Part shown: positions 32,939 to 55,860 of the stretch, one piece after another
Position numbering within the stretch: the first letter of the stretch is position 1
How the letters are laid out: the number at the start of each line of letters is the position of its first letter
Assembly: GCA_023245855.1 (NCBI GenBank)
Contig: JAHFJL010000001.1
Coordinates: 19,975-83,974, forward strand
Direction: 5' to 3'
DNA length: 64,000 nucleotides
Source: a bacterium
Lineage (GTDB): Bacteria; Patescibacteriota; Gracilibacteria; Absconditabacterales; Absconditicoccaceae
Made by a program: the position numbers and the translations under genes
The notes under the pieces: generated by a model
The model's database searches: none
Told to the model about the DNA's origin: nothing
Seen by the model: the letters and a program-made list of their open reading frames with translations, nothing else

Positions 32939-33111
32939 GGTAGTATGATAAAGGATAAAAAAATATACTTCATCCTTTTTTTTCTCCTCACAACAAAAAA
33001 AAGATGCTAAAAGTTGAGCATCTCATTCCATAGGCTTGCATATAAATTTTGGCAACAGCTGAATTGTAAAAATTTTATTGAGGATTGCAAGTGGACATAT
33101 CTTACAATCAA

Positions 33112-36262: not shown

Positions 36263-36940
36263 TTAAAATATCTTTTCTCAGATCCTTTCGTTTCATCACA
36301 CAGTGCATCATTTCATAGGTTCCAGTTTATATGTATATTCCATAAGATTTGTTGCCGACATATGTCAAAATTTTTCTATAATCAAATCAATAAATTTCTT
36401 ATCATTTTTTTCTAATACAAGATACGTCTTGCATGATATCGGTTTATATATCTGATGCTTACCCTTAGCAAAAATATTTTCTGCATCGTAGATTTCTCTA
36501 TTAAAAGGTCATCGATTCCATCTTCGATATTCCCGTCAAATCAGTTTTTCCTTATTCTTCTGTAAAGATTCATAATCTATGATAAAAAGCATTTTCATAG
36601 CTTTTAGTGTATCTATGTCCTTTATCTTAGCTGTTATATAATCTATTGTTTCTATCATTTTTCGCGTGATTTTTCTTTTGGTCAGAAGTTCGTAATCGAT
36701 ATCCAATGCTAATGCTATTTTTTGAAGCACTTCCAAAGACGGATTATAATCACCGTTTTCAAGTTCTGATATGATACTCTGAGTAAGTTTCGCATTTTGC
36801 GCTAATTCCTGTTGAGATAATCACTTATATTTTCTCCAATGAAAAATATTACCTCAAACAATAAGTTGTAGCATCTGCTGTCATCCATCGTCCTTGAGGT
36901 ACTTAACTCGTTTTGGTTTGTGATTTTTGATGATAGGCAT
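36263..36940 (-). CDS. XRE-family HTH fused to Panacea (DUF4065) antitoxin domain
   Basis: HTH: LSQQELAQNAKLTQSIISELENGDYNPSLEVLQKIALAL. Panacea-like: KAMKMLFIIDYESL...LIGREYRRWNRGPFNREIYD. Track ORF 36536-36736 extended both ways through TGA. Confidence 0.7.
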
Positions 36941-36963
36941 CTATCGGTATAAAAGAATAAAAA

Positions 36964-37410
36964 TTATCTGATTTCCGTATAGGTGAACTTCTGGTGTTTT
37001 GTGAATCTAAAATCCTCATAAATCTTCTTGGATTCTTGTATCTTCTCGTCATATAACCTATCTACTTGTTGAACATTCTTTTTGTCATCGTATTTCTGCG
37101 GTTTAATGAGATAACTCGTCAACAATATTAATTTAGATTTTTCGAGGGCAAAAAATATCCTTAAAAAAAAATTTGAACAAGGTATCGAAATTCTGAATTC
37201 ATGGATCGGTCAATCAAGATGCTTAATGTAATGTCAGTCAGGAATCATGTTTGATTGAAGAAAAAAAAATATTGCTTCGTCTATTTTCTTGGACATTTTC
37301 TCAAAAATCTTTTCATCTGTAAGACGTATGATACTTTTGGCAAGCACGGCATCGATGCTTTGATCTATGATATCATGATTGTTTATAATCAATGAATATA
37401 CACTCACCAT
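36964..37410 (-). CDS. Gp49/HigB-like (RelE superfamily) toxin
   Basis: IKHLDGPIHEFRISIPCSNFFLRIFFALEKSKLILLTSYLIKP matches the phage Gp49-like (DUF891) pattern. Lies 23 nt upstream of the XRE-Panacea gene. Confidence 0.6.
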
Positions 37411-37583
37411 GACTATCTTAAAAGTAAATATTGATGTAATTTTACCAAATTCCGATAAAATTGCAAGTTAATTTTCACTTTTATATGTTATTACATATTT
37501 TATTGTCACAAAATCGCTTCTCATTCGTATATAGGAGTAGAGGTAGCTTTTATATTATTACCGATTACCAATGGCATGTTGAA

Positions 37584-37614
37584 GAAAAACCTCCGCGTCC
37601 TGGTGCGGCGGAGG
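37584..37614 (-). terminator. Rho-independent terminator (minus strand)
   Basis: 7-bp stem cctccgc / gcggagg; A5 on the plus strand gives a U-run on the minus strand. Separates the macro gene from the toxin-antitoxin pair. Confidence 0.55.
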
Positions 37615-37761
37615 GTTGGTTGAGGCATGCGGGGAGGGAGGAAGTGTAAATACATTTGTTCCTGTTTCATTTTTAAAGGCATCGAATTCGATGCTGTTAA
37701 AATTTAGATTGTTTATAGATTCCCATAATCACATATATTCGGTCGTGGGTATGAGAGAGAA

Positions 37762-38286
37762 TTATATTAATTTCTGATATACTCAATAATCCTTATTTGA
37801 AAATAATACAAATCTAACTTCTTCGATTTCTGGATATAATTCAACAAATCCTCTTACTGTTTCTACTGCGATTTTACTACATTCCTCTATCGGACATCCA
37901 TAAGCGCCCGTACTGATCGATGGAAACGAAATCGTTTTTATCCCATGATCCAATGCGATTTTCAAACTATTTTCGTAACAATGAAATAGATCATCTTTTC
38001 GGTCATCGTTTTTATAATCCGAGAATCTTGGACCGACCGTATGGATCACTCGTTTAGCGGGAAGATTTCATCATACGGTAGCTACTGCTTCACCTGTAGG
38101 CAAGCCTTTGGGATATTCAATTCTTGTAATATTTTGACACGCTTGTAAAATCATTGGTCAGCCTGCACGATGAATTGCTCCGTCTACGCCTCATCATCAC
38201 AAAAGAGTACTATTCGCAGCATTAACGATAGCATCAGTATTTTGAGTAGTTATGTCTCAGAGGATGAGAATAATAGTAGCAACCAT
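37762..38286 (-). CDS. Macro-domain protein (YmdB / O-acetyl-ADP-ribose deacetylase-like)
   Basis: [35 protein letters not shown]...RVIHTVGPRF...ISFPSISTGAYG. Three consecutive TGA (38191-38199) encode the conserved Gly loop. Confidence 0.9.
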
Positions 38287-38304
38287 AAGAGATATGAAGA
38301 TAAA

Positions 38305-40512
38305 TTAATTTTTCCAATGAGATTGAATGTATTTATTGGCTTCACTTATTGACATAGGTTCTGCACTAGTCCCCGCTCTAATATAAAATTCTTCTTTATT
38401 GTTATTATTCACAAAACATGGTCTATCGCTCAGCGATATTTTTATTACCGCAATATCTTTATCGTCAATGTTTTTGATGCTAACAGAAATGAATTGATGA
38501 AACTCTTTTCAAAGAAAATTATTGATGAGTTCAGTAAATTTTAGTACGAATCAATCTTTATTCTGCTTTTTTCACAATGTCTTATAATCATTTTCTAATC
38601 CTAGTATATTACTATTATCGTCAATACCTATAAGTAGAATCCCTCAGTTTGTGTTAAGGAAGGCACAAGTTTCTTTCATTACCTTTATCTCTAATTCTTT
38701 ATTAATCTCATTTCTAATTAGATCCCATCTTATAGATGATTTGAATTCTATCTTCTCTGTTTCTCATTCTTCAATAAGTTCTTCAATATCCATTTCATTA
38801 CTCATTTTTTTTCCACTTTCTATGTTCTCCATGAATTCATTTATCTTGGTCGCTATTTCATTTCTTCTGAATTCTATAAACGATTTATAACTATCTAGCT
38901 TCCATAACTCTTTTTGAGAAGGGATTAGTTGTGAGTCCAATGCTTCCATTTTGCGTTTCTTAATGATATCTTGGAAGTAAACGATTGGCTCTTTGTTGCT
39001 TATTGATTTATTCGTACCTCACGATATAAATGCTAAATTTGCTATTTCATTAATCTCCTTTTGATCATATTTATCTTTCATTAGTGATTTTGGGAAAATG
39101 TGATGGAATTGTATTTTATGCGATTTTCAAATATTCTTATCAGATAAACCCAGTCATGTCTTTCGATCCTTCGCTCCATTAGCTTTCAATACAAAATAAA
39201 GCATTGAGAATAAAGGACTTCTTATTGATTTATACGCAATATCCTCGCTATCAACAATAAACTTTTTAACATGTAATTTTAGTTGATTAATAAGCTCATC
39301 AACACTATTAGTTTTAAACAATATGGATACATCAGCATCCAACAATCATTCGCTTGATCACATACCATAATGTCCTCTCATATGAGCCAAGAAAAATCGT
39401 TTTAGTAATTTTCTTTCATTTTCAGAAGAAAGTTTTTCTTTATTATTAATTGCATATACTGCTAGAGGCAATAATAGGAATGGTGAAGATAGATATCCTA
39501 AATCATTTATTTGTGCGTTATTTCTCAAAAAATCTACAACAAAACGCAATCAGTCCATAACAGCGGGTCGATGCTTCTGGAACGTCTCTTTGTTTATTTT
39601 TGATACGGTCTGAAACTTACTTTGATGTGTAATGAGTATAACCAGCAAACGTATGGTAATGTTGGTATCAACAATATAGTCTGCATCATTTCAGAATTCT
39701 TTAGAAAATATTTCAACTTCATTCATAAATCCTTTCCACTTTGAGGTTATTTGTGCCAATGCCAAATCACTTCATCTCAATTTTATACCTAATGAATTCA
39801 CTCTAACAAAAATTTCCGTCACTTCTTCATATGACATTGATTTATCCAGAACCTGCATTACATATGGATATTCTTGAATTCATTTTAACTTTTGTATCCT
39901 TGCAGAATAAAAATCCCATATATCGTCATCAGAATTTATACCCTTTGGCTTTAAGAGTTCTTTCTCTGTCTTTCTAAATACATCTGATACTGAAATCCGA
40001 CTAGGATTATTCTTCAATGTTTTAGTGGCCACAACAAAAGTTCTTTTTTTAAATTCTTCTTGAATATCATATTTGGCTGTTTCTTCATCTTCTAACTCCT
40101 CGAAATCTTCTGGTATATCAGTCTCGTCATCCTCTATAACTTCTGATAAGGTTCACTCGGGATGATCTAAATTAAATAAAATATCTATTGGTTTTCTGCG
40201 ATACTTTACGATAATTGGTTCTCAGTTTATGACAGCAGATAGAGAAGTGATCCTTTGTTGTCCATCTAATAGTAATTGTTTTTGATTTGTCTGTTCCTCT
40301 GTTGGTCTTACAGCCAACTCCCTTTCATTACCAAATTCATCTGTTGCTCGTACTAATATTGTACCAGAAGGGTATCATCTATATAAAGAATCAATCAAAT
40401 CACGGACACGAGATGATGGCCGAACATATTTTCTTTGCATTTCTGGAAGAGCAAGCTCTCACCTTTTTACCTTATCAACTAAGCCTCTGACGGTAATATC
40501 AACTTTCTCCAT
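38305..40512 (-). CDS. GmrSD-like DUF262-DUF1524 nuclease fused to a C-terminal AlbA_2 (Schlafen-type) domain
   Basis: DUF262: LPEMQRKYVR...YRGYPSGTI...LLLDGQQRITSL. DUF1524 (His-Me finger): HKIQFHHIFPKS...NLAFISGGTNKSISNK. AlbA_2: ETEKIEFKSS...AFLNTNGGILLIGIDDN. I verified all 735 codons line by line; about 18 TGA=Gly and no TAA/TAG. Confidence 0.8.
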
Positions 40513-40597
40513 TAGAATAGATTATCAATAAAAGTCTTTAATATAATTATACGTACTTTAAAATTATTGTCAAATTTAGTAGATAAATAACATTGTA

Positions 40598-42094
40598 CTA
40601 AATCATCTTTTCTACTTCATCCAAACCTTTTTGAATCTGACCTTCAATTTCTTTAATCTGACCAATCAATACTTTTGGATTTTCATACTTCACTGCTATA
40701 TATTCTATCTTTTTATACTTGGAGATACTGAGGTCGTAATTATTTTTTTTAATCTCTTCCTTATCTACTCGGAACCATTTATCTCACTTGCTAGGCTCAT
40801 TATCATACTTACGATCAGTTACACATTTTGCAAAATTAGCTAATACATCAGGAATATTGTTATCGTTGATTGGAGATCTTTTGTCATCCAAACTAAAGCC
40901 ATCGGCTTGCAGATCATAGAACCACACTTTTTTTGTCTCATCTCATTTAGTAAATATAAGTACGGCTGTACTTACTCCAGCGTATGGTTTAAATACTCAT
41001 GATGGTAAACTAATAACTGCTTTGAGGTCTGTATTTTCTAACAATAGTTCTCTCAATTTTTTGTGAGCGTTGGATGAGCCAAACAAAACTCCGTCTGGAA
41101 CGATTACTCAACATCTACCCCCTACAACTAATTTATTATAAATTAATTCCATAAACAATAATTCTGTTTTCGTTGTTCCAAGTGTAAAATCAGGATTAAT
41201 ATCTCCTTTATCTATACTCCCCTTAAACGGTGGATTCATCAAAATCACATCAAATTCTGGAGCATGAGAAAATTGCTTCCCTAAGGTATCTTGATATTTT
41301 ATATTTGGTGTGGCAATACCGTGCATGATACAGTTCATCAATGCAATTCTAACCATCGTACTATCAAAATCAAACCCCGTCAATCCATCAGACTTTAGTC
41401 TTTTCCGATCTTTTTCATCAAGTAAATCTGCGGGATAATGGGTTCCGAATTCATCAGAAAAAAGAGCATCTTTTGAGGTATTTTGTTCTAAAATATGCTT
41501 GTAGGCATTGATCAAAAATCCTGCGGTTCCTGCTGCTAAATCAGCTATTTTATCGTGTTTATTTGGATTAACGACATCCACTATCATTTGGATGATATGT
41601 CTTGGTGTACGGAACTGTCCGTTTTTTCACGCACTTGCGATTTCATTCAAAAGATATTCATAAATATCTCCTGAAGTATCTTCGTTTTGTTCTGTAATAT
41701 GAAGATTTTCTAGAATATTTACCGCAGTAACTAACATGCTTGCTTTGGGAATAACGAGATTTGCGTCTTTTAGATTTCCTGCAAATCATTCTTCTGTATG
41801 CAATGTTTTGATAAATGGAAAAACAGCATCTCTTACATACGTAAACATTTCCTCTGCAGGCATTTGGATCCAGTGGCTTCGTCTAAGCTTTTCATTGCCC
41901 TCAAAAAGTGAGGCATATTTAAAAGAAGAAACTCTGTTTGCTTTAAGCACATTTTGTTTGTCTAATTCGTCCAATCTTTTCATGAAAATAAGAAAAGAAA
42001 TCTGTTCTATAGCAGTCAATGGATTAGCAATCCCTCATGATCGAAAGGTATTTCGTAATGAGTTAATCTGTGATTTAAGTTCGGGGTTGAGCAT
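40598..42094 (-). CDS. hsdM: Type I restriction-modification system, N6-adenine DNA methyltransferase subunit
   Basis: HsdM N-terminal domain ([23 protein letters not shown]), SAM-binding region ([10 protein letters not shown]), and catalytic NPPF (ILMNPPFKG). I verified the frame to TAG at 40600-40598. Confidence 0.92.
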
Positions 42095-42098
42095 GAGA

Positions 42099-43004
42099 TT
42101 AGTGTTTGAAAGATAAAACAAAATTGAATATCTGGTCAAAATCAAAATCAGGATATTTTTTTCATAAAACAGGATCGAGATCATTTGCTATCTGTATTTT
42201 CAAAGCATCATAGTGATCATCAATAGTATATCCACTCTCTGATTCTGCTACTTTGTGAGCAATAAGATCTTGAATGCTAACAAAATCAAAGCCTTGCTGC
42301 TGCATATACCAGATATCAAAGAAATCTCTGATCGCTGGTAATTGACGTGTCAGCGCAGCTCTCATCTTCTCTGCCATCATCTCTTCCAAAGACAGGCACG
42401 TGATACTCATCTCATCAAAGATGGGCTCTTCAAGAATCGGATCAATAAATACAGCATGGACTGTTCATGTTGTTGATGGCAAGTATTGTTTGCTGGTATA
42501 GGTCACTTCTATTTTGATTGTCTGTTGTTGCTGACTAAACATACTCGTGTAGCTAATCACGTATTTGAGATAGGTGTATTCTTTGGTTTTTAAAAAATGG
42601 TTGCCTTGTGCTCTTTTGTGATGATATTCATCAGCATTCAACTTCCGATTCATAATTTTGCAAACTTTTTTCATTTTTTCTCTCAGATGTTGAGCAAATT
42701 TCTCTCTTTTTCCATTGGTATTTACTAGAGGATCTTCAATACTTATAGAAAAATCTAAATCTTCACTCAGACGAAAATAGGGATAATATACCTTATTGAG
42801 GCATGTTCCTCCTTTGAAGGTTATCTCTGGGATGTTGATGGAAATCCGTTGAAGAAGTATGGTCAGATAAAAATCTTTTTCAAATTTTTCTTTGTCAAAA
42901 TTGGCTGTATTGCTTTTTTCAAATATCGATAAAAGATCTTCCTCGTTTTCTATAGGAAGCGCTGTTCACAAAAGTGTATCAATACGATCTATCAGCGTGG
43001 TCAT
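42099..43004 (-). CDS. AbiEii/AbiGii-family nucleotidyltransferase toxin
   Basis: ITFKGGTCLNKVYYPYFRLSEDLDF is the hallmark motif. Fragments 42162-42410 and 42465-42674 are in frame. The stop lies 4 nt before the hsdM start. Confidence 0.8.
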
Positions 43005-43633
43005 AGTTCCAAAAATTGTTTTACTAAAATTTGTACTCTTTGGCTACAATATTTCTGAGAAAGAGAAATAAGTTTGGTTGGAGAGATTATTTTCTTTTTG
43101 ATCTCTTGATAAATATCTTCGACATATTCCATCTTTCCATCGTTTTCATCAATCATCTGGATAAGCGCTCTTTCACTAGTCATACGATTGTACGTCCCAT
43201 ATCACTGAGCATCCACTTTTTCTATCCCTCGAAAAAATGACGGTCTGACCTGACGAAAAATAAACGTATATCCGGCTATATTTCTCTCGCCACGGGTACT
43301 GGCATTGTATACTGTAATCTTGTTCGCAAGCTGCTGGGAAAAATGATACTGATTGTACAGATACATTCCTCCTATGGAATACAATTTATTTTTTCCATAC
43401 TGTGCTAAGATTGTCGTAGCCAGCAGTCATTTTTTTTTGCTTGAGAGCAGATTGAGATAGAGTTCTCACCTTAGGATAGGAGAGAGTAATCAACGACTAC
43501 ATAAAGTATCTATTCTATATTTAGGAGCGAATTTATCCAAAATTTTTTGCAACAGAGAAATTTCTATGAATGGTTTATCATAGATTCTGAGTTTTTCTTC
43601 TATAGTTTTAAACTGATTGATCGGTATATTCAT
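42989..43633 (-). CDS. AbiEi-like antitoxin / transcriptional regulator
   Basis: 214-aa ORF immediately upstream of AbiEii and overlapping it by 16 nt. SERALIQMID segment is typical of AbiEi. Fragments 43001-43183 and 43202-43384 are in frame. Confidence 0.6.
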
Positions 43634-43780
43634 TTTTATTATTGTCATCTAAATCCAGCAATATTGTGTTTTTTTGATGACAGATTGCAAGAGGAAATTT
43701 GCATCTTATTTTTCTAATGCGTAAACAATATTAAAAATAAAAAAAAACAGTCGAGAACTGGAATCTTGTGGCTAGTGATG

Positions 43781-43835
43781 GAAGAATACTAAACTTCGGA
43801 ACAGGTATGGTAGTTACCGAAGTTTAGTATTCTTC
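43781..43835. repeat. Perfect 19-bp inverted repeat with 17-nt loop
   Basis: gaagaatactaaacttcgg - N17 - ccgaagtttagtattcttc, in the 380-nt gap between the Abi_C gene and abiEi. Confidence 0.8.
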
Positions 43836-43860
43836 GACGGGGAATCAAGTATTTGCAAGT

Positions 43861-44009
43861 ATATGTTAGATTTTCTTCGTTTTTTTAACATATTTATGAG
43901 ATATGTTAGATTTTGGAGATAATGTATACCCAATACCTATAAAATAATTTTATAGATATTTGCGGATTTTGATGAATAACTATAAAAAAATTAGGGATAT
44001 GTTAGATTT
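43861..44009. repeat. Three direct copies of ATATGTTAGATTT (operator-like)
   Basis: Copies at 43861, 43901 and 43997. The first is also half of the palindrome ATATGTTA-N16-TAACATAT. Confidence 0.7.
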
Positions 44010-44013
44010 CTTA

Positions 44014-44994
44014 CTATTCTTTAATGTATATTTTTCTTAATCTCACTATTCACTCTAGGGATAATTTAAATAGTTTGTTTCAAATTTTTATAGCATGATC
44101 ACCAGGAAAACTTTTTATAATTTGTATTAGCTCATTAAATGATTTTACTTCTGCAGGCAATGGGAAATTGGATATTTCTTTCTTTTTAATTTGATATTCA
44201 TACGAATCATTCAAAAACCAAGTTAACGTCTTTACAGAATTTAACATCAATAATGCATGATGTTTTAGCGGTTTAATTCTTATTTTTCATTCTTTATCTT
44301 TCAATTTTCTATGTCTATCTCACATAGAATTACATAATCTATCTATCGCATCTACTATTTGAGAAAATCACATTAACATTTGTTTAATTAGTTGATCCGC
44401 ATGTCAGTCAGGCACTAGATTTAATAAATTCTTAATTTTAACAAAATCTTTTTTAAGATCAGCACTTTCTCATAAAGATTCTCAAGTAATTTTTATATGT
44501 AATCATTCAAAAAACTCCTCTAAAAATGTAGATAGAGTGCCGATTGCTCAATCATAGTCTGTTTTCTTAATTTCATCTTCTGCTTTTTTTAAATGTTTTC
44601 CAATTTCCTGAGAAAGATCAATTTCTGGCTTTATCTCTAAGTCATCAGATTTTTGCTCTAATAGTTTCATTCATATTTTTTTTCATTCCTTTAATCTAGC
44701 ATCCGGAAAATCTATCTGTTTTAAATAACCCATAGCAATCTTGGTTTCAATATATTCAATGAGCTTTATTATGCTCTTGGCAATCATTTGATTACTTTCT
44801 AAAGTCCAAAAACTTCTCATTCTACTAGCTTTTGATTCTCCATTCTGGCTATATTTTTCGTCATAGATATTGATACCAACATCATCGTGGAAAAAATCTA
44901 ACATTGTTCTATTTGAAAAATCAAGAACATATCATCCTTTCATTTGGAATCATTGCTCTAATATCTGTTTATCTATTGATGATAGATCTGCCAT
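44014..44994 (-). CDS. Abortive-infection family protein (Abi_C-like C-terminal domain)
   Basis: 326 aa, every codon checked, about 19 TGA=Gly. C-terminal IDRLCNSMGDRHRK resembles the Abi_C motif (RN..G.aHG). Starts 6 nt after the hsdS stop. Confidence 0.5.
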
Positions 44995-45000
44995 TATTCC

Positions 45001-46134
45001 TTATAATTTAAAACTACTCTGCATTGTCGCCTGATACAGTTCCTCCAACTTCGCTAATGCTTGCTTATGCTTATCAGTACTAGCTTGGAGCTTGGTGATG
45101 ATGTCGGCAAATTTTTGCTGAAGAGAAAGCGGCGGAAGTGGAATATTTAAATTTCTTAAAACATCTAAGCTTAAAAATCATTGCGCTCATCATTTTCAAT
45201 TATTTCATAGTAAGGTTGTCTTAAATTGTTGAAAATTCAATAGGTGGGTTAAATAATATCATATTAAATTATTTCTATTTGGTTTAAATAATGCAACGTT
45301 TTTCATACTAAAAGGGAACTTAAATGTATTTAATACCGCTGTTCACATATTAACTCAAATATTTGTATATAATACATCTTCATATTCAGGATTACATCTT
45401 TGATATATGATTTCATGAACTTCGGAAGATACATAATCTAGATCAGAAAGATCAAATTGGAACTGTCTAATGTTTTTTCATGTTATAAACATGATTCATT
45501 TTTTTAATCTTTCTGGTGTGTCGTGGGTTCAATCAGTAATTTTATTACAGATACTTTTCATTTTCCTCACTTCCCATCCTTTCTCATTCGTCATTGGATC
45601 GCCAAACATCTCCAAAAATATCGCCTTCGTAAGTTCGTTAGTCTTGGTGATTGCTTGCTTTTTGAGGTCGATGAGGGACTGGAGTTTATCAAGTTTATCG
45701 ACGATGGTGCGTTGGGTAGCGAGAGGTGGGAGATTAATCTTTGTGTTCATGAATTCTGGTTTGGTTATATGTACCATAGTTGCTCCATGAGTTCTGCTCT
45801 CAAAATTTTTAATAAGAGAAAGCAACAAATAATAAAAGTATTTCTTATCAATAATTTGTTTATTTTGGATTATCTTAAAAATATGTTGGTTTAACCATGC
45901 GTCACCTCTATTTCGTATAAATGCTCACAAAGATCAAGATCGCGCGAATAACAAATCTCAATCTTCAACTAAATATTTTTTATCAATATTTTTTGAAGAA
46001 TAATTAAAAATAGTATCAGAATTATTTAGATTCTGTATTCTTATAATAGGCAATCCTTCCATTTCTCGCTCTGTTGGCTTAAAGGCTCTACCATTAATAT
46101 AGTCTGCTATTTCTCAAAGTTTATAAGTTTGCAT
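45001..46134 (-). CDS. hsdS: Type I restriction-modification system, specificity subunit
   Basis: Two target-recognition domains. They are separated and followed by the conserved helices PPLATQRTIVDKLDKLQSLIDLKKQ and PLPPLSLQQKFADIITKLQAS. Confidence 0.88.
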
Positions 46135-46141
46135 ATTATTA

Positions 46142-48109
46142 TTATTTTTTTAATGATGCTAAAGATTTGCTTATTTTTTTATCTCATTGAGTTTTGTTTT
46201 CTATTTTACTATGTTTACATATGGATTCATATGTAGTTTCTAGCTGTTGTCTTAAATATTCCAAACGTGTTCTATTCTCCTCAATAATATCTGACCATTT
46301 TCTACAATATACAGATACGTTATTGGTTGGAACCTTATGTATAAGTCATCTATCCTTCTCTCCCCAATTTTGATGGGATTCTATCAATTGATTGATTTCT
46401 CCACTGGTATCAAATTTATCTCAAACTAAGAAAAATTTCCAATCATAGTTGGATCAATTAAAGCGAGGCTCTTTTGTTATTACATTTAGATAATTCTTCA
46501 CCTGATCTACCTCTTTTCTTCATAGACTTATTTTAGGGTGTTTCAATTCAATCACAATATTCTTTACGTTTCATCATCTCCTGTCTTGTCTGCACATAAA
46601 AATATCCAACTCTTTGTTTTTATGCTCATTTTCGATATAAACTTTCTCATCGATCCCATAAAGAACAAACAAAAATTTCCTTAGATTCTGTTCAAAGTCA
46701 GGTTCTGCTGCTCAGATTAAAAAGTATTCATCTCAAAATAATCGATAATGGCTCTCTACCAATTTTTGCAAATTATGTACTTCATCTGCCTTTAGTTCCT
46801 CATCAAAAACATATTGCTCTAAAAACTTTATTACATTTAATCTCTCGTTTATTATATCAATAGTCCTAATTATATTAGATAGTTTTATATCTTTAAGTAA
46901 GGTACCAAACCTTTCTTTTTCCATGTCAGAAAGGGCCAAAACGTTATCTATAATATCAAAAAGTTTGTGACTATTTCCTTCTTCCAATATCGCCGATATT
47001 AATCTAATAAATATTTTTCTTTGGTCGTCTCATAATTTGGTGAATATCTTAGGCTCAACCAGATAAATTTTTTTTATTGTTTCTTTTATAATTCCTGTTT
47101 TCATTTCTCATACTATGGAATCTTCCTCATTAGTAATATCTTCGATATTGGTGTTAACATAAGTCTCGGCTAACGATTCAATGAATGGTCTTCTAAATTC
47201 ATTTAATTGTTTGTTTAGCTGAACCATAAAATCTTTGAAAGTTTCTCTATTATTTTGACTATTCTGTCCCTCAAATAAGAGATTATCTCATCCATCATTT
47301 AATATTTGCTTATCAAAAAAAGATGACTGAATAAATACGCTATGGTGGAAATCATCGGATTGTCTATTTAAGGAAGTTCATTCTTTTAATATTTCCTTGT
47401 CTGCAGAATTTATAAAATAATTTTTAGATTCTTCCTCTATGAGTTTATCTTCCCATTTTATAAATTTTATATCAAATTTTATCTTGTCTATAATTAAAGA
47501 ACTTAGCTTCTCCATAGATATGTACTTTTTATATTCCAATTCTTTCTTATTTATACGTATTGTAATTCCTTTCAATAATAAAATCCAAGAAAATCTAGCG
47601 ATTAAATATTTTTCTAAATCGGTTTCCATGAAGAATTTACTTACGCCAACATCTTCGAAACTAACTTTGGTTCCTGTATACTTACTTTTCTTAGAATTTT
47701 TATCTAAAATGTCATATTTGCTTAAATCTCTAGAAGATACTTTCAATTTTATATATCATCCCTCTTGTCTTGATTCCCACGTTGCAGAAGAAGAAAAACA
47801 GAAAAATGTCAGTCTTCATACTCAATCTTTGCCGAAGACATCTGACTTATTGAGAGATCTATTCTTCTTTGAAAAAAGAAAAACATCAAAAGTCGTAGAT
47901 AAATCTTTCTCAGAAAATCCTCCTCAATCATCAATTATTTCAAATTTAGAAATATATCAAGTATCATCAAAAACATAATTGATATCGATATTCTTTGCTT
48001 GCGCATCAATTGAATTCTCTATATATTCTGAAATCGCTTTATCGGGAGTGTAGTCCTTTAGTCTCTTTCTTATTCAATCATTAGTTACAATTAAATTTTT
48101 TTGTGCCAT
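46142..48109 (-). CDS. GHKL (HATPase_c) ATPase fused to a C-terminal PD-(D/E)xK nuclease-like domain
   Basis: N-terminus: AISEYIENSIDAQAKNIDI...FEIIDDGGGFSEKDL...FGKDGVGRLTFF (Bergerat fold motifs). C-terminus: ELDIFMCR...NIVIELKHP...VDQVKNYL (D..ExK, Shedu/DUF4263-like). 655 aa verified, about 19 TGA=Gly. Confidence 0.65.
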
Positions 48110-48135
48110 AATAGCAATTTACAAACTAAATATAT

Positions 48136-50139
48136 TTATTTATCTTTCTGACTTAAGATAAATTGATAGATATTTTCAGCAACTTCTTTAGCCTCAGCAG
48201 ATAAATCTTCATAATTGTTTATATATTTAATTGCGGTTTCATAAAATTTAACCTTATCTCGTATAGTTCATCATTTGGCCTTATATCTTGTTTTCATCTT
48301 TTTTACCAATAATTTTTTTTCTATGAATTCACCTAACTTAGTCTTTCTGTGATCTCCTATTCTTGTTTTAAATTCCACAGACTGATTTCAACATTTTTTT
48401 TCTAATTCCGTTACGGCATCTTTTAGCACGTTCAATGACAATAGATTTTCTATTTCTCTCACTGGTAATTTATTATATCTCTTTTCTAGTTTTTCTTTTA
48501 ATTTTTCTTTCCTCTCTTTTTTTCTATTTTCTCAATCTTCATCTATAATCAAAAAAGACTTACCACATAATCTATCAATATTAACTTGTTCATGTCAATT
48601 TTCATCATCTAAGAAAGAAAAATGAGTAATATTATTACCTCAATATTCAACAAAACAATAATCAATGTCTTGTTTAACTTCTATAAAATTTGGATTCTCT
48701 TTTTTTTTCTGCTTTTGATAAAGATCAAGATATCTACCTAAATACAATCTATCAGTAATACCTTCGACCCATATTGTGCTATTAGCAATAAATATAGATG
48801 ATTTTTGCACTCAGAGTTCTAGCAATATATTTTCATCACCTGACTTAATATTTTCTATGATAAATTGTTTGTTTTCTGTCTTTCTAGCCTTAAAAATTGA
48901 TATATTGTCAAAGTCCAGGGTCAGATCCAAAAAGTTATTTGAATGTGTTGTTATAAAAAACTGATGCCCAATAAAATCAGAAGTTTTAATCAAAACTTCA
49001 ATGAGTTTTCTTTGCATTCAAGGGTGTAAATATAATTCTGGTTCTTCTATAAAGAAAAGCCCGTTAGTGCATTCAAATAGCGGTAATGTAATTGTTATTA
49101 ACGTTTGTATTCAGTCTCACAGATCATAAATAGCCCTATCGTCTTCGTCTCATATTTTTATATGTAATATTCCATTTTCTTTATCTCGTTTGTCTTTATT
49201 AACATCTCTTCATAAAATATTATTATCCTTTGATATCAAAGTAATATCCTGCCCATCGAATAAATTCTCCTTCAAAAATTCCTGATATTTCTTGATTTTA
49301 TTTCTTTGATCTTGTGTTCACAAAAGCATCTTTTTTACTATTTCGTTAAGCTTTTGTCAAGAATTTATATCCACTTTATAGTCTTTCCCAGCTGTTGTAA
49401 AATAATCTTTTTTTACTTTTTCTTCAAATAAGTCATTATTAATCAAACCTCTCAAGGAATCTACTACTTTGGATGTTACGTCTGATTGAGTTCAACGTCA
49501 AGAGAACATATCTTCCACCCATTTTACTAAAGGTCATCTTATGTTATTAACAGATCTTAAGGCTGGAGTATAATTTTTTGTATAATCAACAAATTTAAAT
49601 AAAGCTAATTCATTAAGATTCTTTATAATATCTGATGCACTAGAAATTTTTTCTTTTAGTGAATTAATGAATTTAACATTTTCCATATAGATAATTCATC
49701 AACTTTGTTTTTGAGGATCACATAAAAGTATTTTATTCAACGTATTTTTCATTGATAATATATCTTCAATATTCTTTTTAGAAAAAAATATATCAAAATT
49801 TCAAGTTAAAGTTGTTTTATCTAAACTGAAAGATCACATATTAAAATTTCAAAATCAAGCATTTTGTTGGTCTCGAACTTGAAGCAAGGATTTTATTAAT
49901 TCATTTAAAGAAGTAATAAAGTCTTTAAAATTGAATGTTAATCTTGTTGGTATAAATTTAAACTCTTCTATCTTTGAAATTTCCCTCATAAAGCGACTCT
50001 TTCCAGAATTATTTGGTCATATAAAAATATTTATTTTTGATAAGCTATTTAATTCTTGCAATCTATTCCCATCATTTCAGAGAAAATCCTTAAAATTTTC
50101 ATTTTGCGGTATTTGAATTTCTTTGAAAATATAGGTCAT
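48136..50139 (-). CDS. OLD-family / PARIS-like ABC-type ATPase fused to TOPRIM (DUF4435-like) nuclease domain
   Basis: Walker A IFIGPNNSGKSRF, signature-like LGDGIQTL, Walker B GLFFIEEPELYLHP, and H-loop FFITTHSNNF. TOPRIM-like region: TIWVEGITDRLYL...FVEYGG...LIIDEDG. 667 aa verified line by line, with 25 TGA=Gly. Confidence 0.75.
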
Positions 50140-50149
50140 ATTGCAACTT

Positions 50150-50245
50150 TTACAAACTAAATATCTCTACAAACTCTCCCGCTGAAGACGGGATAGACAT
50201 CCTTTCTTCGCTTCCTTCTGCTTACGCAGCCAATCAAATGCTCAC
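50150..50245 (-). pseudogene. Degenerate duplicate of the last ~25 codons and stop of hsdR
   Basis: The first 28 nt are identical to 51030-51057, and the last 43 nt are about 80 percent identical to 51063-51105. A 25-nt hairpin-containing insert interrupts it. Confidence 0.7.
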
Positions 50246-50277
50246 CTATTAAATATTGGTTTGTCAAGCAAATTCTC

Positions 50278-50306
50278 TTGCAAAATAAGGTAGATATGAG
50301 TATAAT
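50278..50306 (+). promoter_or_regulatory. Near-consensus sigma70 promoter on the plus strand
   Basis: TTGCAA (50278-50283), exactly 17 nt, then TATAAT (50301-50306). Confidence 0.45.
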
Positions 50307-50312
50307 AATACT

Positions 50313-50382
50313 GGAATTGAAGCTCTTATCGAACTGTGGTCTTTATGGCCTGCGTTCCCTTACGGGATAGATAAGGGTTTTT
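50313..50382 (+). ncRNA. Putative ~70-nt small RNA (promoter-to-terminator unit, no ORF)
   Basis: Bounded by the promoter above and by the hairpin ccctta-cgggataga-taaggg plus T5 (50357-50382). Convergent with the DUF3800 gene, whose stop is at 50389. Confidence 0.3.
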
Positions 50383-50388
50383 CCTTTA

Positions 50389-51021
50389 TTATAATTTTTG
50401 TCTGGGTCGTTGTTGGACATTGATTTCTCTATGAGATATAAAACGACGAAAGTCATTTTTACTTTTACTGTCGCCATAATAGCGATGTATTACTCAGCAT
50501 ACATAATCTACAAGTTGGACAAGATTGTCCGTATGTGAACGGTGCATAGCTACTTTTTTAATCCTCTTACAATTTTTAGTATTCAGTTTGTTTCTTAAAT
50601 ATTTTCATAAGGCATATTTAAAACCTTCGGATCATGTTTTATCTATAATAACGGTAGCATTTTCTATTTTATCTTTTGCGTTTTCGAAAACATATCAACA
50701 TATACATTTATAAAAAGAATCTTTATACTGAAATCATTTTCATGTTACGATTTTCTTATTTAAGACAAAACCATGATAGAAAAAATTGTAATTTGCTACA
50801 GCTTCTAAAAACAATTGTCTGATTTTGTCAGAGTTTTTTTTAAAATGAAATTCAAAATTATCGTGGAGTCAAAGCTCTCTTCTTAATAAATCTATTCTTT
50901 GACTACATGCAATTGCTTCATCGTGATCGTTGAAGACAACTAATGCTATAGAAAAAAATGGACTTGATCATTGATCAAACTTAAAACCCGAATCTCCACT
51001 TTCATCTATATAAATAAGCAT
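50389..51021 (-). CDS. DUF3800-family protein
   Basis: MLIYIDESGDSG... and C-terminal HRSHTDNLVQLVDYVCGVIHRY are DUF3800 hallmarks. 210 aa, 9 TGA=Gly. Starts 8 nt after the hsdR stop. Confidence 0.7.
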
Positions 51022-51029
51022 ATATATGA

Positions 51030-53729
51030 TTACAAACTAAATATCTCTACAAACTCTATCAATTTCTTCGCTTCTTCCTGCTTAAATAATCTATCAAACG
51101 CTCACATGCCAAAGGTTGTCTCAAACACGGGACTATAAAAGTCGTCGTAAGTAATATGCTTCTTCTGAATAATCAATGACTTCACGATCTGCAAAAACTT
51201 GATCTGCGCAGAGTTGAAGTTATTCCCATGGATATGCTGTTCAAAGATTTGATTTACCTCTTGTTCCCAACCAGGCAAAGTACCTTTACCTAACGCCACC
51301 TTGATTAACTGTTCAAAGCTTGCTGTAGGTCTCCCATAGGCTTTCCTCAAATTAAGGACGTTGATATGATACTCGGTATTATTGAGCATCGTTTCAAGTT
51401 CTATAATGTCGCCTTGTGTTAACTCTTCGTTGTTAAGTATCTTCTGGATAGCTTTGGAACTCTTGGCATAGTCTTCCAACTGATGCACAAAAAGTTCCCG
51501 ATACTTATCAGAAGCCATCTTTTTGCCTTCGGTGTATTCTATCCATCTCCTTTCGATGACGGTATCTTCGATATCTGTGATCATAATCTCCGGTTTGGTG
51601 GTGTCCTTGTATTTCATCAGTCAGGTAAACTCTTTTTTTAAGTCTTGGATCTTATCCAAAGATATTTCTTTCCAGTACTTAGGACTAAGTACTTCTTTGA
51701 TAGAAGTTTCTTTATCTTTTACTTTGCTGATATTCCTAGATAGGGCGTTAATATCTGAAGCTATCTTATTTACCAGCACTTTTGTTTCATCGCCCTTTAC
51801 TAAGGCGACTACAAACTGTTCATTCTTAATTAAAAATCTAAGTTCATCAGCACTATGTTTGTCATAGTATCTTACTAATGGTGCAAGTTTTTGAAGCTGT
51901 TCATATGGATTAACTGCCATATTATCAAAAATAGATTCTGACATTACATTATCAATCAAATCTTTGTGAGCGAGTAGTTCGTCGTTTGGTTTCAATCCTT
52001 TGACAAAAATCAGTATCTCTTTTTTTGTCTTCTCGAAATACTTAGTATCTTGTCTATTCTCAAATAGCTTAAGTTGTTCTATCTTAAGTTCAAAGTATTT
52101 TTGTTGGAGCGATATTCATTGTTGGTTTGGTGGTAGGAACTTGTGTGCTTCATCGAAATTGAGCGCGAAATCGATAATCAGAAAATCTTTTTTATCTTCT
52201 CCAGGACCGTAGACATTAGGACGCAACCTCGTTCACCTTCCTACCATCTGCCAAAATTTAGCTTCTGATAATACCTTTTTGGCGAAAACGAGATTTACTA
52301 ATTCAGGAACATCTACGCCCGTATCTAGCATATCTACTGATATAGCGACTCTGTATTTCTTCTCTGTCTTATATTTTTTGAAGTCTTTAAGTAATTGGTC
52401 AGCCCTTTCTACATTGGAAGTAATGACTACGGAAAATTTGTTTAAGTGAGGATAGAGTTCCTCGAATGTTTCCTGTAAGTGTTCGGCATGTTTTTGATTC
52501 ATCGCAAAAATAATAGTTTTCCCCGGAAGTCCGTCTTCACCTTTATATGCTTGTTCCATAAATTCTCTGATGATAGCTCTATTAGTATCTTTGTTGTCGA
52601 TTTTTTTGCCGATCTCAGAACCCTCGAAGTTATAGTCCTCAGGATTTTTTCATTCTTTGATAAGTTGTTCTCTGAGGTCTTTCGGTAATTGTCTTCATTT
52701 GATTCCTTGAATCTGAAATTGTGTCCTTGCCATCAAGACTCTGTACGGCACGAGATATCCTTCCTGTACCGCCTCATCGAGTCAATAATTGTAGGTCGGT
52801 CATTTTTCATGACAATCAAATTCCTTGTACGTACTTCTATCGATAAAATCCACGGGCGTAGCGGTAAGTCCTACATGGTAGCAATCGAAGTGGTCAAGAA
52901 TAGCTCTCCATTCTCCATAAATTGATCTATGTACTTCATCCACGATAATCATATCAAAATATCCACTACTGTATCTGTCCAAATAATTAATCATTGTCTG
53001 ATAATTCGCTGAATAGAGCCTCGCGTTATCATCAGTTTTTCCCGTCTCTATTTTAGTTTTTGGCTCCTCCGGGAAATATACTTTAAATCCATCGTCAAAT
53101 GCCTGATCCCTCAAAGCTGTCCTGTCTGTGAGAAATAATATCTTTTGCGCATTATGCGTTTTCAACATCACATCAATCAATCCCATAGCGGTTCTCGTCT
53201 TTCCGCATCCCGTTGCCATCACAAGCAAAAATTTTCTTTTACCGACACTTATTCATTCTGTAACGGATTTGATTGCTGCTATCTGATAGTGTCTACTTGC
53301 TATATCTGGATCCACTTGTTGACTATTTGGTGATGTTTGAGTCTCATTGAGAAATTTGAGTCTATGTAAGTCATGCAGAGTGAAAAATGTCCTGACTTTT
53401 CTTGGTGATTCTTCTTCAGCAGAATTATAAAAATGAATTTCTTTTCCATTAGAAAGAAAAATAAACGGTTGAAATCACTGTTTATCTTTGAGAAGGATAG
53501 AATATTCCAATGCTTGATATTCTCCATCTCTTGGTGATCTGCTAAACTTTTTTGCTTCGATAATAGCGAGAACTTTTCCATCAGTATCTAACAAAGCATA
53601 GTCTGCAAATAAGGTAGTTCAATTTCTATCTATAGGAAACTCTAGGACTACTTGCCTATGATTATTTATATCCCAGCCAGCTTTCTTGAGTTTGGTATCT
53701 ATCAATAAACGAGTCTCTTTTTCGAGCAT
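51030..53729 (-). CDS. hsdR: Type I restriction enzyme, R (helicase-nuclease) subunit
   Basis: N-terminal nuclease motif ADYALLD...AIIEAKK. Helicase motifs VMATGCGKT, DEVH, LTATP, DMLDTGVDVP and QMVGRGTR. Long C-terminal helical domain. Fragments 51102-51617, 51621-51995, 52233-52559 and 52800-53228 are all in frame with ATG 53729. TAA stop at 51032-51030. Confidence 0.92.
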
Positions 53730-53757: not shown

Positions 53758-53785
53758 TTTATAGTGATTTCGGGGGAAAATCCAA
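53758..53785 (-). promoter_or_regulatory. Candidate promoter of the hsd/defence operon
   Basis: On the minus strand: TTGGAT, N16, TATAAA. The -10 lies about 30 nt upstream of ATG 53729. Confidence 0.35.
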
Positions 53786-53790: not shown

Positions 53791-53820
53791 TAAAATAAAA
53801 AATCCCCGCTGAGACGGAGA
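53791..53820 (-). terminator. Rho-independent terminator (minus strand)
   Basis: On the minus strand: tctccg-tctcag-cgggga (one G-U pair) followed by TTTTTTATTTT. Insulates the membrane gene from hsdR. Confidence 0.55.
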
Positions 53821-53926
53821 TCTTTTCGTTAAAAATAAAATCAGATATATATTTTTTAAATAAAAAATACAATTTCGATATCATGAAAACACTTCGATAT
53901 CTCAGGTTTTCATTGTATCTCAAACG

Positions 53927-55240
53927 TTAGTTTAAAGTTTGAATCCTTCCTAAATATCTCGCTGCATAATATACAATCATCGACTGCAATCCCACATACA
54001 CCAACACCAAGAAGAAGATAAGCTCGCCTGGCAATTGCGTATAGATCAGCAATATCACGTTCACCACCATCGCTGCGACACAGGAAACAATCCAGTACAT
54101 ATAATCGGTCTTGTTGAATATCTTCGCCAGCATCGGTACCCTATGCGCATAGAAAATCATCGCTGTACTAAAGATATTTCGGAAGATCCCTCGGCTCGCT
54201 ACTGCGCCGATATCGCCGTTGAAATATGAGAACAAGCTCACATAGATCGCGAAATTGATTACGAGGAATACTACGAGATTTTGCAGGATGCTGTTGTATC
54301 AGACTTTCTTGAGCAGCAGCACATTGGCTACGAATGCGAGGATTGTGAGCCGATAGAAAATATGGTTGATGTTTGCAAAACTGCCTACATGTCATATGTA
54401 ATAGATGATAAGGATTGTGACTAGTACGATATTGAAAAGCTCTAGGATCTGCTTTGTAGCGCCCGGCATCGCCGCCAAGAAACCGTATAACTGCTCTATC
54501 CAAGCTGAACGGAAATATTTTTTTTCTGTAGTGATTCTCTCGCCTGCGAGGATACGTCTGACCGAGATATTCTTTTTTTTCTCGTCGGATTGCGGCGTGA
54601 ATTGGAAGACTTTGTAGATGAGGTAATACAGCCCCGTCAGGAGCAATGCATTGATGGATAATGAGATATATACATTTTTTATCTGATCGAAAACGAAGAG
54701 GAAGATGGTTCCCAACGAGAGGATCCCTAATTCATATCGGAGATACTTTTCAACGTCTTTGTGGATATTGACGATAAAAATTATGAACGCGGTGATTGCT
54801 AGATGCATCACCCGCAGCATCGCAAACACGTTCCCCAGCGCTGCTCGTCATCCAAACGCAAACGCTGTGATTAGGATAAATAATATGGAGAGATAGAATC
54901 AAAGTTGAAAGACCGCTTTCCCGTCTTGATATTCAGCGAGAGATGAGATTATCCGTAAAACGAGGTTGAGCGAAAGTATTCATAATGCGGTGTAAGTTGC
55001 ATCCATTCAGAAGTAATTAAGCATCCCGACCAGCCCTGCGAGGATGATGATCCATGCGACGTAGAGCGAATATTTTTGCAGGACTTCAGATCATTTGACT
55101 TTGATGGTCTGGGTCGCTCCGTAATATCCAAAAAATATCCCGATAAATATCATCGGTATCAATGCAAGATATCGTAGTCCTATCCCATAGAAGAAGAGCA
55201 CGAATCAGATGACTACTGTTGAAAGGAGCAATAAAGCCAT
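53927..55240 (-). CDS. Polytopic integral membrane protein (437 aa), function unknown
   Basis: Fragments 53927-54241 and 54392-54829 plus the 5' part up to ATG 55240 form one frame joined by TGA. About 10 or more hydrophobic segments. Confidence 0.6.
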
Positions 55241-55291
55241 ACTAAATAAACTAACAACTAAAAGTGAAAAACTAAAAGTGGTGGTATTTTT

Positions 55292-55651
55292 TTAATATTC
55301 TTTTTTCGCTTTGGATGTTTTGATAGTAGCTACTAACATTCTTAATATTTCTTCTCATTTGCCATGTAATGTTTGATACTGTTGTTGATCTATATATAAT
55401 GTATCTTGTAACAAGTCCAACCGATATAATGTTTCATTTGCTTCCTTAAGTGCAATACTCATCTTATTGATAAAATCTGCTTTTGACTGTCCAAACTCTG
55501 CTTCACGTATCATAGCTCAAACACTTGTTCATGATCTTATAAGCTGTTTGCTTATAATGAATTCTTGTTTTTCTTTGGAAAGATGTTTATAGATTTTCAC
55601 TATTTCAATACTGAACTCATAACTTTTCGTTTTAAGTATACTTTCACCCAT
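55292..55651 (-). CDS. Four-helix-bundle protein (23S rRNA intervening-sequence protein family), second copy
   Basis: QLIRSGTSVGAMIREAEFGQSKADFINKMSIALKEANETLYRLDLL is the family signature. Confidence 0.75.
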
Positions 55652-55726
55652 AATACTAGTTAAAAACTAAAAATGAAAAACTAAAAGTGTTTGTATTTTT
55701 ATGTATAATATTCTCATCATTATTAG

Positions 55727-55860
55727 TTTTTCACTTTTCACTATTTATTTATCAAAATATTCCATCGTTTTTCACTTTTCACTATTCACTTTTCACTATT
55801 TATTTATCAAAATATTCCATCGTTTTTCACTTTTCACTATTCACTTTTCACTATTTATTT
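55727..55860. repeat. 55-nt tandem repeat, about 2.4 copies
   Basis: Unit tcacttttcactatttatttatcaaaatattccatcgtttttcacttttcactat, starting at 55731, 55786 and 55841. Intergenic. Confidence 0.85.

Follow-up and report, generated by a model that had tools for sequence, protein, structure and literature searches.

Gene content of the locus

The stretch of bacterial DNA considered here, a 64-kb window of contig JAHFJL010000001.1 (assembly GCA_023245855.1), contains at positions 36263-53729 an island of 13 minus-strand genes organized around a type I restriction-modification (R-M) operon. To judge from its sequence the operon is apparently intact, and it has the order hsdR-hsdS-hsdM, with six protein genes and one small RNA (sRNA) gene lying between the hsd genes. 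An earlier note on this DNA had spoken of at least eight interleaved defence genes, all co-directional. We found that six protein genes are interleaved, that four further genes (the GmrSD-like, macro, 148-aa and HTH-Panacea genes) lie downstream of hsdM and are appended to the operon, and that the sRNA gene sits on the plus strand.

Genes of the island were read with genetic code 25, in which TGA specifies glycine. Reading TGA through raised the total of long open reading frames in the window from 26 kb under the standard bacterial code to 81 kb, and in-frame TGA encodes invariant glycines in the GGGGVDG motif of the macro protein, the Walker A motif (GPNNSGKS) of the OLD-type ATPase-TOPRIM protein and motif VI (GRGTR) of HsdR. 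As these glycines do not vary within the families concerned, we regard code 25 as correct. Protein families were assigned by profile searches with Pfam, NCBIfam and PADLOC and by sequence comparison with PDB entries, and the best 25 PADLOC and Pfam matches of each protein were examined. These searches recovered the gene order and domains that the earlier note had given, with the exceptions described below, and PADLOC, run on the code-25 translations, matched the hsd genes and most of the cargo but had no match for the GHKL-nuclease, macro and 148-aa proteins (Table 1). For brevity, the DUF3800 gene, the OLD-type ATPase-TOPRIM gene and the GHKL-nuclease gene are referred to as g2, g3 and g4, respectively, and labels such as L022 denote related loci that were compared with the window.

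By sequence, the operon specifies the components of a type I R-M system: an HsdR with nuclease and helicase, an HsdM N6-adenine methyltransferase and an HsdS with two target-recognition domains. HsdR consists of an N-terminal PD-(D/E)xK domain, an SF2 helicase and an EcoEI_R_C tail, and its translation contains the motifs D..EAK, GCGKT, DEVH and QMVGRGTR, with helicase motifs that are visibly intact. The hsdM gene begins with MLNPEL, the same start as in its homologues, 4 nt past the AbiEii stop codon. Elsewhere in the island the DUF3800 gene starts 8 nt past the hsdR stop codon, g3 and g4 are separated by 26 nt, g4 and hsdS by 7 nt, hsdS and the Abi_C gene by 6 nt, and the GmrSD-like and macro genes by 18 nt, and the AbiEi and AbiEii genes overlap by 16 nt. 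All of these distances had been quoted exactly in the earlier note.

An assembly chimera was ruled out by a contig from a second sample (L021), which is 99.99% identical to the window over 8 kb, together with an ENA contig that has the same gene order; the contig of the window is present in the samples SRR14366756 and ERZ27297709. The genes at 53927-57040, which neighbour the island without belonging to it, also lie on the minus strand. A gene of the 23S rRNA-intervening-sequence protein family (PF05635, 2e-26) is found at 55292-55651 (minus strand), 1.5 kb upstream of hsdR.

Table 1. Features of the island and its immediate surroundings, in order of descending position in the window. Transcription signals are predictions.
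Feature	Position	Strand	Basis or description
Terminator-like hairpin of preceding membrane-protein gene	53797-53826	-	hsdR promoter-like site lies just after it
Promoter-like site upstream of hsdR	53758-53785	-	TTGGAT-16-TATAAA
hsdR, 899 aa	51030-53729	-	PADLOC REase_I 2.9e-143; Pfam ResIII, HSDR_N, Helicase_C, EcoEI_R_C
Tail copy A, true hsdR 3' end (..EFVEIFSL*)	51030-51057	-	28-nt exact direct repeat with 50150-50177
DUF3800 protein (g2), 210 aa	50389-51021	-	Pfam DUF3800 4e-15; PADLOC PDC-M04A 3e-10
DUF3800-IX sRNA (Rfam RF02968)	50320-50384	+	cmscan 50.2 bits against gathering score 36.8, full model length
Promoter-like site of sRNA	50278-50306	+	TTGCAA-17-TATAAT, consensus match
Tail copy B, hsdR 3'-end remnant	50150-50258	-	last 28 nt identical to copy A; upstream 56 nt 73% identical
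OLD-family single-chain nuclease (g3), 667 aa	48136-50139	-	Pfam AAA_15, AAA_21; PDB 6p74 OLD 4e-6
Tail copy C	48119-48133	-	15-nt exact copy of hsdR end (21 nt at 86-90%, 48118-48138), in g3-g4 gap
GHKL (MutL/MORC-like) ATPase (g4), 655 aa	46142-48109	-	HATPase_c_3 1.8e-18; HSDR_N_2 2.6e-5; Mrr_cat 0.09
hsdS	45001-46134	-	Methylase_S 1.3e-41, two stretches; PADLOC Specificity_I 2.2e-73
Abi_C/AbiJ-like protein, 326 aa	44014-44994	-	Pfam Abi_C 1.1e-8; PADLOC AbiJ 4.9e-16
Conserved non-coding block in gap before AbiEi gene	43850-44025	-	three AATCTAACATAT repeats and a 19-nt palindrome
Perfect 19-bp inverted repeat, 17-nt loop	43781-43835	-	-30.7 kcal/mol, z = -8.7
AbiEi-like antitoxin/regulator, 219 aa	42989-43648	-	PADLOC AbiEi 8.8e-7; no Pfam match
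AbiEii nucleotidyltransferase toxin, 301 aa	42099-43004	-	Pfam AbiEii 8.6e-34; PADLOC 8.7e-37
hsdM, 498 aa	40598-42094	-	N6_Mtase 1.3e-60; PADLOC MTase_I 7.9e-164; NPPF motif
Sigma-70 consensus site	40546-40573	-	TTGACA-16-TATAAT, 33 nt upstream of GmrSD-like gene
GmrSD/BrxU-like type IV restriction protein with AlbA_2	38305-40512	-	GmrSD_N 1.3e-28; GmrSD_C 4.7e-6; AlbA_2 2e-18; HEC-05 1.3e-38
Macro-domain protein, YmdB/O-acetyl-ADP-ribose deacetylase type	37762-38286	-	Pfam Macro 2.5e-41; NCBIfam NF001664 221.7 bits (cut-off 200)
Terminator-like hairpin after macro gene	37585-37614	-	CCTCCGC-N11-GCGGAGG and TTTTT
Promoter-like site before two-gene unit	37439-37466	-	TTGCAA-16-TAAAAT
148-aa protein	36964-37410	-	no family match
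HTH-Panacea antitoxin-type protein	36263-36940	-	SocA_Panacea 1.7e-16; HTH_3 1e-13

Variable slots, repeated hsdR ends and codon use

Scans with HsdM and HsdR, together with look-ups of cargo homologues, yielded about 25 related loci. These relatives, labelled candidate division SR1 or Candidatus Gracilibacteria, all contain many in-frame TGA codons and have hsdR-hsdS-hsdM as their common order, with HsdR 57-97% and HsdM 64-89% identical. One locus, L002 (CAZPFR010000019.1), carries the label 'Candidatus Peribacteria'; its hsdM is 83% identical to that of the window and has 9 in-frame TGA codons, and the bin may be mislabelled or mixed.

Comparison of the hsd locus across these relatives revealed that the slot between hsdR and hsdS and the slot between hsdS and hsdM are both variable, embedded content differing in L003, L004, L012, L014, L022, L023 and L026. 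In its minimal form (L003) the locus consists of hsdR, one 243-aa gene, hsdS and hsdM. A reverse transcriptase (RT) gene occupies the first slot in L014, where hsdS and hsdM then follow, AbiTii follows hsdR in L015, and a 123-aa gene and a DUF6602 gene follow hsdR in L012 and L010, in which an AbiEi-AbiEii pair 35-43% identical to that of the window precedes hsdM. In L004 the second slot holds AAA_21 and RloB genes, and L022 has OLD and DUF3644 genes after hsdR as well as a 274-aa gene, RT and Fic before hsdM. L023 and L026 share the succession of hsdR, a DUF3800 gene with its RNA, other genes and hsdS, and in L026, as in the window, a GmrSD_N gene follows hsdM.

Cargo also differs where the hsdR alleles are nearly the same. 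Between L003 and L015 the alleles share 97% identity, and between L008 and L011 they share 99%, yet neither pair has the same gene behind hsdR, and the resemblance stops exactly at the hsdR stop codon; similarly, hsdR of L007 and L023 is 95% identical, with DUF3800 present only in L023. Because the cargo differs behind near-identical hsdR alleles, we regard the operon as a genuine scaffold with fast-changing cargo. This bears out the scaffold proposed in the earlier note, as the relatives keep hsdR, hsdS and hsdM but fill the same slots differently. None of 10 flanking proteins was matched in any related locus.

The end of hsdR, in stretches of its last 15-28 nt, recurs at cassette boundaries. 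The window contains three copies of this tail, A to C (Table 1), and the 15-mer core they share, ATATTTAGTTTGTAA, is present 3 times where 0.03 would be expected, and all three copies sit at gene boundaries. Copy B, which the earlier note had recognized as an hsdR-tail remnant, comprises ~110 nt of decayed hsdR coding sequence with a ~20-nt insertion at about 50177-50200; it ends 10 nt before the start codon of g3 and is collinear with the genuine hsdR-to-OLD junction of L022. Second tail copies are found after the 123-aa gene in L012 and L010, with a degenerate copy in L011, and after the DUF3800 gene and RNA in L023, L024 and L025. In L023-L025 the insertion inside copy B occupies the position that it has in the window, with a shared short sequence, GGATGT..GTCTTCAGC, and the DUF3800 cassette with copy B therefore probably arose once and then spread. 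We rejected a conserved, covarying hairpin upstream of the second tail copy, as the folds there are no better than those of shuffled controls (z -1.1 to +1.5), and a check for phage carriage gave no match of the tail motif in viral contigs. In L022 (4599-4612) and L023 (8078-8091) hsdS also ends in ..FSL*, through TTTAGTTTGTAA, and has its last 12 nt in common with the hsdR tail, which may be a coincidence or a tail-mediated junction.

The DUF3800 gene and the sRNA gene form a discrete cassette of ~0.85 kb. In the window this cassette comes immediately behind the hsdR stop codon, as it does in all four relatives whose sequence covers the end of hsdR (L023 and L025-L027; L024 begins within the hsdR tail and was left out of this count). 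Wherever a contig extends to that stop codon, the closest homologues of DUF3800 (85-92% identical) begin 8-10 nt behind an hsdR of the EcoEI_R_C type. What the earlier note had listed as an sRNA candidate exceeds the Rfam threshold for DUF3800-IX, but it lies on the strand opposite to the one assumed. The sRNA gene and the DUF3800 gene converge, with 4 nt between the RNA and the stop codon of DUF3800; the RNA has a fold of -24.8 kcal/mol (z = -2.8) with a U-run after the closing stem, and it follows the DUF3800 gene in L023-L027 also. A structure model of P0121, a DUF3800 homologue at 88-92% identity, has a predicted local distance difference test score (pLDDT) of 87 and RNase HII and RNase H3 as its best PDB folds, and an RNase HII/H3-like fold is predicted for the protein of the window. 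The invariant N-terminal DESGD of DUF3800 resembles the RNase HII catalytic motif, and residues D6 and E7 are invariant. An RNase H fold for DUF3800 also appears in a published AlphaFold analysis.

No function has been proposed for the DUF3800-associated RNA motifs since 2017 (Weinberg et al. 2017, PMC5737381), when either orientation was reported for DUF3800-I and related motifs. The RNA of the window resembles these motifs in scoring above threshold beside a DUF3800 gene, here antisense to it, and differs in that the pair forms a cassette after the hsdR stop codon, which places it in an immunity context. DUF3800 is itself listed by PADLOC as an embedded candidate, PDC-M04A.

The island also stands apart in composition, in keeping with the earlier description of the locus as AT-rich and TGA-dense (g3 does have exactly 25 TGA among its 667 codons). 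Its GC content is 0.32 versus 0.39 in the rest of the window, and TGA accounts for 49% versus 17% of glycine codons. Cargo genes and hsdS have a GC content of 0.26-0.31 and use TGA for 50-70% of glycine codons, hsdS being cargo-like at 0.31 and 71%, whereas hsdR and hsdM, at 0.34-0.37 and 23-24%, are near core genes (17% overall). The protein families of the cargo are common to many standard-code phyla at 35-60% identity. The high TGA use and AT content of the cargo indicate that it has lately resided in AT-rich genomes recoded at TGA, in line with the exchange within recoded lineages that had been suspected; every close relative found has many in-frame TGA codons.

Cargo proteins and transcription signals

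In the protein of g3 an ABC ATPase and a TOPRIM domain are joined in one chain. Its alignment with 6p74 reaches the TOPRIM VEG motif, a DEDG motif is visible, and the C-terminus gives a weak OLD-like_TOPRIM match (E = 0.11). There are >2,500 homologues of about 610-630 aa, several of them named OLD-family endonuclease by JGI, and the neighbouring genes are DUF3800 and GHKL with no UvrD-type helicase, as in a class 1-like OLD system. The earlier label 'PARIS-like' did not survive: no DUF4435/AriB was found, AriA models match the ATPase part only, and the PADLOC models AriA, GajA and Old score near-equally (about 1e-16 to 1e-20), and we rejected a PARIS (AriA/AriB) assignment on these grounds. 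Relative to the OLD gene of L022 (585-2426 of that locus), g3 is a mosaic in which residues 61-330 are 27% identical and residues 331-667, like the rest of the protein, 78% identical. The insert region of the ATPase may thus have been swapped or have diverged rapidly, and residues 61-330 would look like a fast-evolving sensor insert.

The g4 protein ends in a PD-(D/E)xK-like domain (the HSDR_N_2 match of Table 1), and its homologues sit directly after R-M genes in standard-code Firmicutes. In L029-L033, from such Firmicutes, members of this family of ~670 aa follow a Bsp6I-type type II R-M pair or a type I hsdR at a distance of 21-31 nt. From this placement, g4 looks like a member of an R-M-associated family for which PADLOC has no model.

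Among the other modules, the AbiEi gene overlaps a downstream AbiEii (DUF1814) gene, as in AbiE systems, and the GmrSD-like protein unites DUF262 and DUF1524 in one chain, as in GmrSD, with an AlbA_2 fusion that lies outside both Pfam GmrSD models. Each module of the cargo may act in defence independently. The macro protein exceeds the NCBIfam equivalog cut-off for O-acetyl-ADP-ribose deacetylase and may be a housekeeping enzyme. The 148-aa gene, 23 nt upstream of the Panacea gene, forms with it a toxin-antitoxin-like two-gene unit (36263-37410) apart from the operon. The 148-aa protein had been called Gp49/HigB-like, a label that finds no support at the level of sequence: it has no match in Pfam (E up to 5), NCBIfam, PADLOC or the PDB sequence comparison, so that a HigB/Gp49 (RelE-fold) identity would have to be a remote one. 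Models for PrrC/RloC anticodon nucleases were absent among the best 25 PADLOC and Pfam matches per protein, and no recombinase, integrase or transposase was present among 23 proteins scanned in or beside the locus. About 3 kb outside the island, at 32144-33031 (minus strand), a Bro-N protein matches the PADLOC candidate PDC-S13 at 1e-102, and a different Bro-N gene directly follows hsdM in L022; the defence island may extend about 3 kb past its reported end, to the Bro-N gene.

A single polycistronic transcript, as envisaged in the earlier note, is unlikely given the convergent sRNA gene, the conserved block before the AbiEi gene, the sigma-70 site and the terminator that we predict. Several transcription units appear more plausible. 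The sRNA gene, with its own predicted promoter and terminator-like end, separates g2 from g3. The gap before the AbiEi gene measures 365 nt, and the conserved block within it includes the palindrome CTATAAAAT-T-ATTTTATAG (43937-43955), shares 83% identity over 180 nt with the spacer between RT and Fic in L022 and in part resembles the sequence that precedes AbiEi in L001; it may be an internal promoter subject to regulation. The perfect inverted repeat between the Abi_C and AbiEi genes has no T-run immediately behind it and is not conserved in L022. The site upstream of the GmrSD-like gene is the only perfect sigma-70 consensus in the 64 kb, with 0.12 expected in the whole window, and alone among the promoter calls it carries some weight. 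A terminator after the macro gene, noted earlier, is predicted there by us as well.

Proposed cargo exchange in the hsd operon and alternative readings

We favour, with a probability of roughly 70%, the explanation that the type I R-M operon is a recombination hot spot for immunity genes in the TGA-recoded Gracilibacteria/SR1 lineage. On this explanation, independent defence modules would have three fixed places, one behind the hsdR stop codon, one in the interval from hsdS to hsdM and one downstream of hsdM. In the window these places hold DUF3800 with its sRNA, the OLD nuclease, the GHKL-nuclease, Abi_C, AbiEi/AbiEii and GmrSD-AlbA_2. Cargo in the orientation of the operon would travel with the hsd genes and would probably be partly co-expressed. 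Recombination using conserved hsd segments as homology could add, swap and probably lose cargo; an addition beside hsdR would leave the resident tail behind as a scar, and the resulting direct repeats would then permit precise loss. GHKL would probably have arrived first, OLD second and DUF3800 with its RNA last. Tail copy C would fit an older hsdR-GHKL junction because g4 homologues directly follow R-M genes elsewhere.

Several observations weigh against a recombination hot spot. No recombinase, excision product or donor molecule was observed, and the route is read from scars only. Independent tail duplications number about three, not six, because the DUF3800 cassette and copy B appear to be of single origin. 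The g4 and 148-aa proteins match no defence family, and the macro protein has the look of housekeeping. Promoter and terminator calls are consensus matches that are not enriched over the region (80 versus 95 expected from shuffles). Finally, co-orientation may partly mirror strand bias, as the neighbours are on the same strand and GC skew is negative over 28-60 kb.

The adjacency of cargo and R-M genes could also mean, in line with the guard idea of the earlier note, that the embedded genes are functionally tied to the R-M complex, sense inhibition of the R-M enzyme (by Ocr or Stp) and trigger abortive infection, as PrrC does in EcoprrI. Sensing of R-M inhibition and Ocr-triggered guarding have already been voiced in the literature, which has OLD-type ABC ATPases, PARIS and Gabija answering anti-defence proteins. 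The tight, operon-like spacing would suit such guards, as would the position of the closest DUF3800 homologues just behind hsdR in 4/4 loci, the recurrence of the GHKL family directly after R-M genes in unrelated phyla, and the divergence from L022 of the presumed sensor insert of g3, as for an arms-race sensor. Recurrent adjacency is, however, equally explained by a shared insertion site, and cargo that differs between near-identical hsdR alleles argues against an obligate partnership. AbiE, GmrSD and OLD nucleases, moreover, are known from the literature as stand-alone systems, and the profile matches include neither a PrrC/RloC anticodon nuclease nor AriB/DUF4435. We consider guarding of this kind unlikely.

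Cargo breakpoints that fall exactly at the hsdR stop codon raise a more specific idea, namely that the last ~25 nt of hsdR are an integron- or att-like site, or the target of a self-inserting DUF3800+RNA element. Two cassettes of the window are each bounded by tail repeats, as is also seen in L012 and L023-L025, and copies A and B share a window-specific GAGATA in place of the GGAGTA found elsewhere, implying recent recombination or gene conversion. DUF3800, at 55-60% identity across many phyla and with members in phages, is distributed as a mobile gene would be, and its fold is predicted to be RNase H-like. These points are offset by the lack of an integrase or transposase among the proteins scanned in or beside the locus, of conserved structure beside the tail copy (z about 0), of meaningful complementarity, by eye, between the sRNA and the tail, and of the tail motif in viral contigs. 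The tail is ordinary coding sequence, conserved as ..FSL*, and the similar nucleotide identities of hsdR (80%) and DUF3800 (85%) fit co-inheritance, all of which leaves site-specific insertion still less likely than guarding. A related possibility is that the last ~25 nt of hsdR serve as a reusable docking site for cassette insertion and precise excision among code-25 bacteria, with no linked integrase, and that DUF3800 with DUF3800-IX is one such cassette. We offer this tentatively and think it unlikely; if it were true, the orphan DUF3800 protein-RNA pair would gain an immunity-linked or self-mobilising role.

Least probable is an ordinary defence island, a chance pile-up ('genomic sink') of genes with their own promoters and with co-orientation due to leading-strand bias, since the predicted internal promoter-like sites and terminator, the non-defence neighbours on the same strand and the Bro-N candidate nearby are outweighed by the constant company of hsdR, hsdS and hsdM, with cargo in the same slots, amid flanks that change from relative to relative, and by gaps of 4-8 nt and overlaps that exclude separate promoters at most junctions.

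That immunity genes can lie nested within a type I R-M operon is already known. Payne, Hughes, Fineran and Jackson (bioRxiv 10.1101/2024.01.29.577857) report, in the available text of their preprint, that embedding is frequent in type I R-M systems and 96.7% co-oriented; the significance of embedding is left open in that text, and only a 'genomic sink' is offered for its origin. The window resembles the embedded systems described there (type I R-M, BREX, DISARM and Hma) in that genes foreign to the system are nested in the same orientation, and in cargo dominated by ABC-ATPase/TOPRIM proteins, GmrSD-like proteins, Abi proteins and unknowns. Two of their candidate families are matched here, HEC-05 by the GmrSD gene and PDC-M04A by DUF3800. 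It differs in its code-25, candidate-phyla host, in having six protein genes and an sRNA gene in two slots of one operon, and in the hsdR 3'-end scars at cassette boundaries, of which we found no description in the available text.

In EcoprrI-PrrC (prrA-prrB-prrC-prrD) and RloC, the classic R-M 'guardian', an immunity gene likewise lies inside a type I hsd locus; the window, in comparison, has no anticodon-nuclease homologue and has several unrelated modules instead of one. The Campylobacter jejuni locus hsdR-rloA-rloB-hsdS-hsdM (PMC2928727) has the same succession of hsdR, cargo, hsdS and hsdM, with strain-variable cargo between hsdR and hsdS, and the AAA_21 and RloB pair of L004 is similar to it, but in the slot between hsdS and hsdM. 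That locus belongs to another phylum and code, and the window has more cargo, a second filled slot and tail repeats, which we did not find reported in the text consulted. Integron arrays, too, consist of serial co-oriented cassettes with a reiterated short sequence beside a fixed platform gene. Here there is no IntI integrase and no folded attC, as tail-adjacent sequence folds no better than shuffled controls, and what is repeated is the 3' coding sequence of hsdR; the integron-like pattern would require no more than ordinary homologous recombination. In those parts of the embedded-cargo literature that were covered, we found no description of tail scars or of a recurrent DUF3800+RNA cassette at the hsdR stop codon.

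The locus extends embedding to genome-reduced, TGA-recoded bacteria of the candidate phyla, whose in-frame TGA codons should keep the cargo from passing on to any hosts but those in which TGA is a sense codon. The repeated hsdR tails, together with cargo differences behind 97-99% identical hsdR, provide a checkable footprint of cargo addition. Two uncharacterised families are tied to restriction by these comparisons, DUF3800 with its structured RNA and the GHKL-nuclease for which PADLOC has no model, and both are testable as immunity components.

Elsewhere in the window, several plus-strand genes are free of TGA glycine codons, which average about 17-20% for the window. Three tandem genes for secreted Thr/Gly-rich repeat proteins at 5122-9533 have TGA at 0/170 glycine codons and may be foreign or highly expressed; the end motif of the last of them resembles, by eye, a Bacteroidota-type C-terminal sorting signal. 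The same is true of small genes at 10372-12644 that are ribosomal-protein-like by eye (0/28) and of the gene at 25883-28207 for a 774-aa protein rich in 'KNGGQKG' repeats (0/64), and it may be that highly expressed genes of this genome, recoded as it is, avoid TGA.

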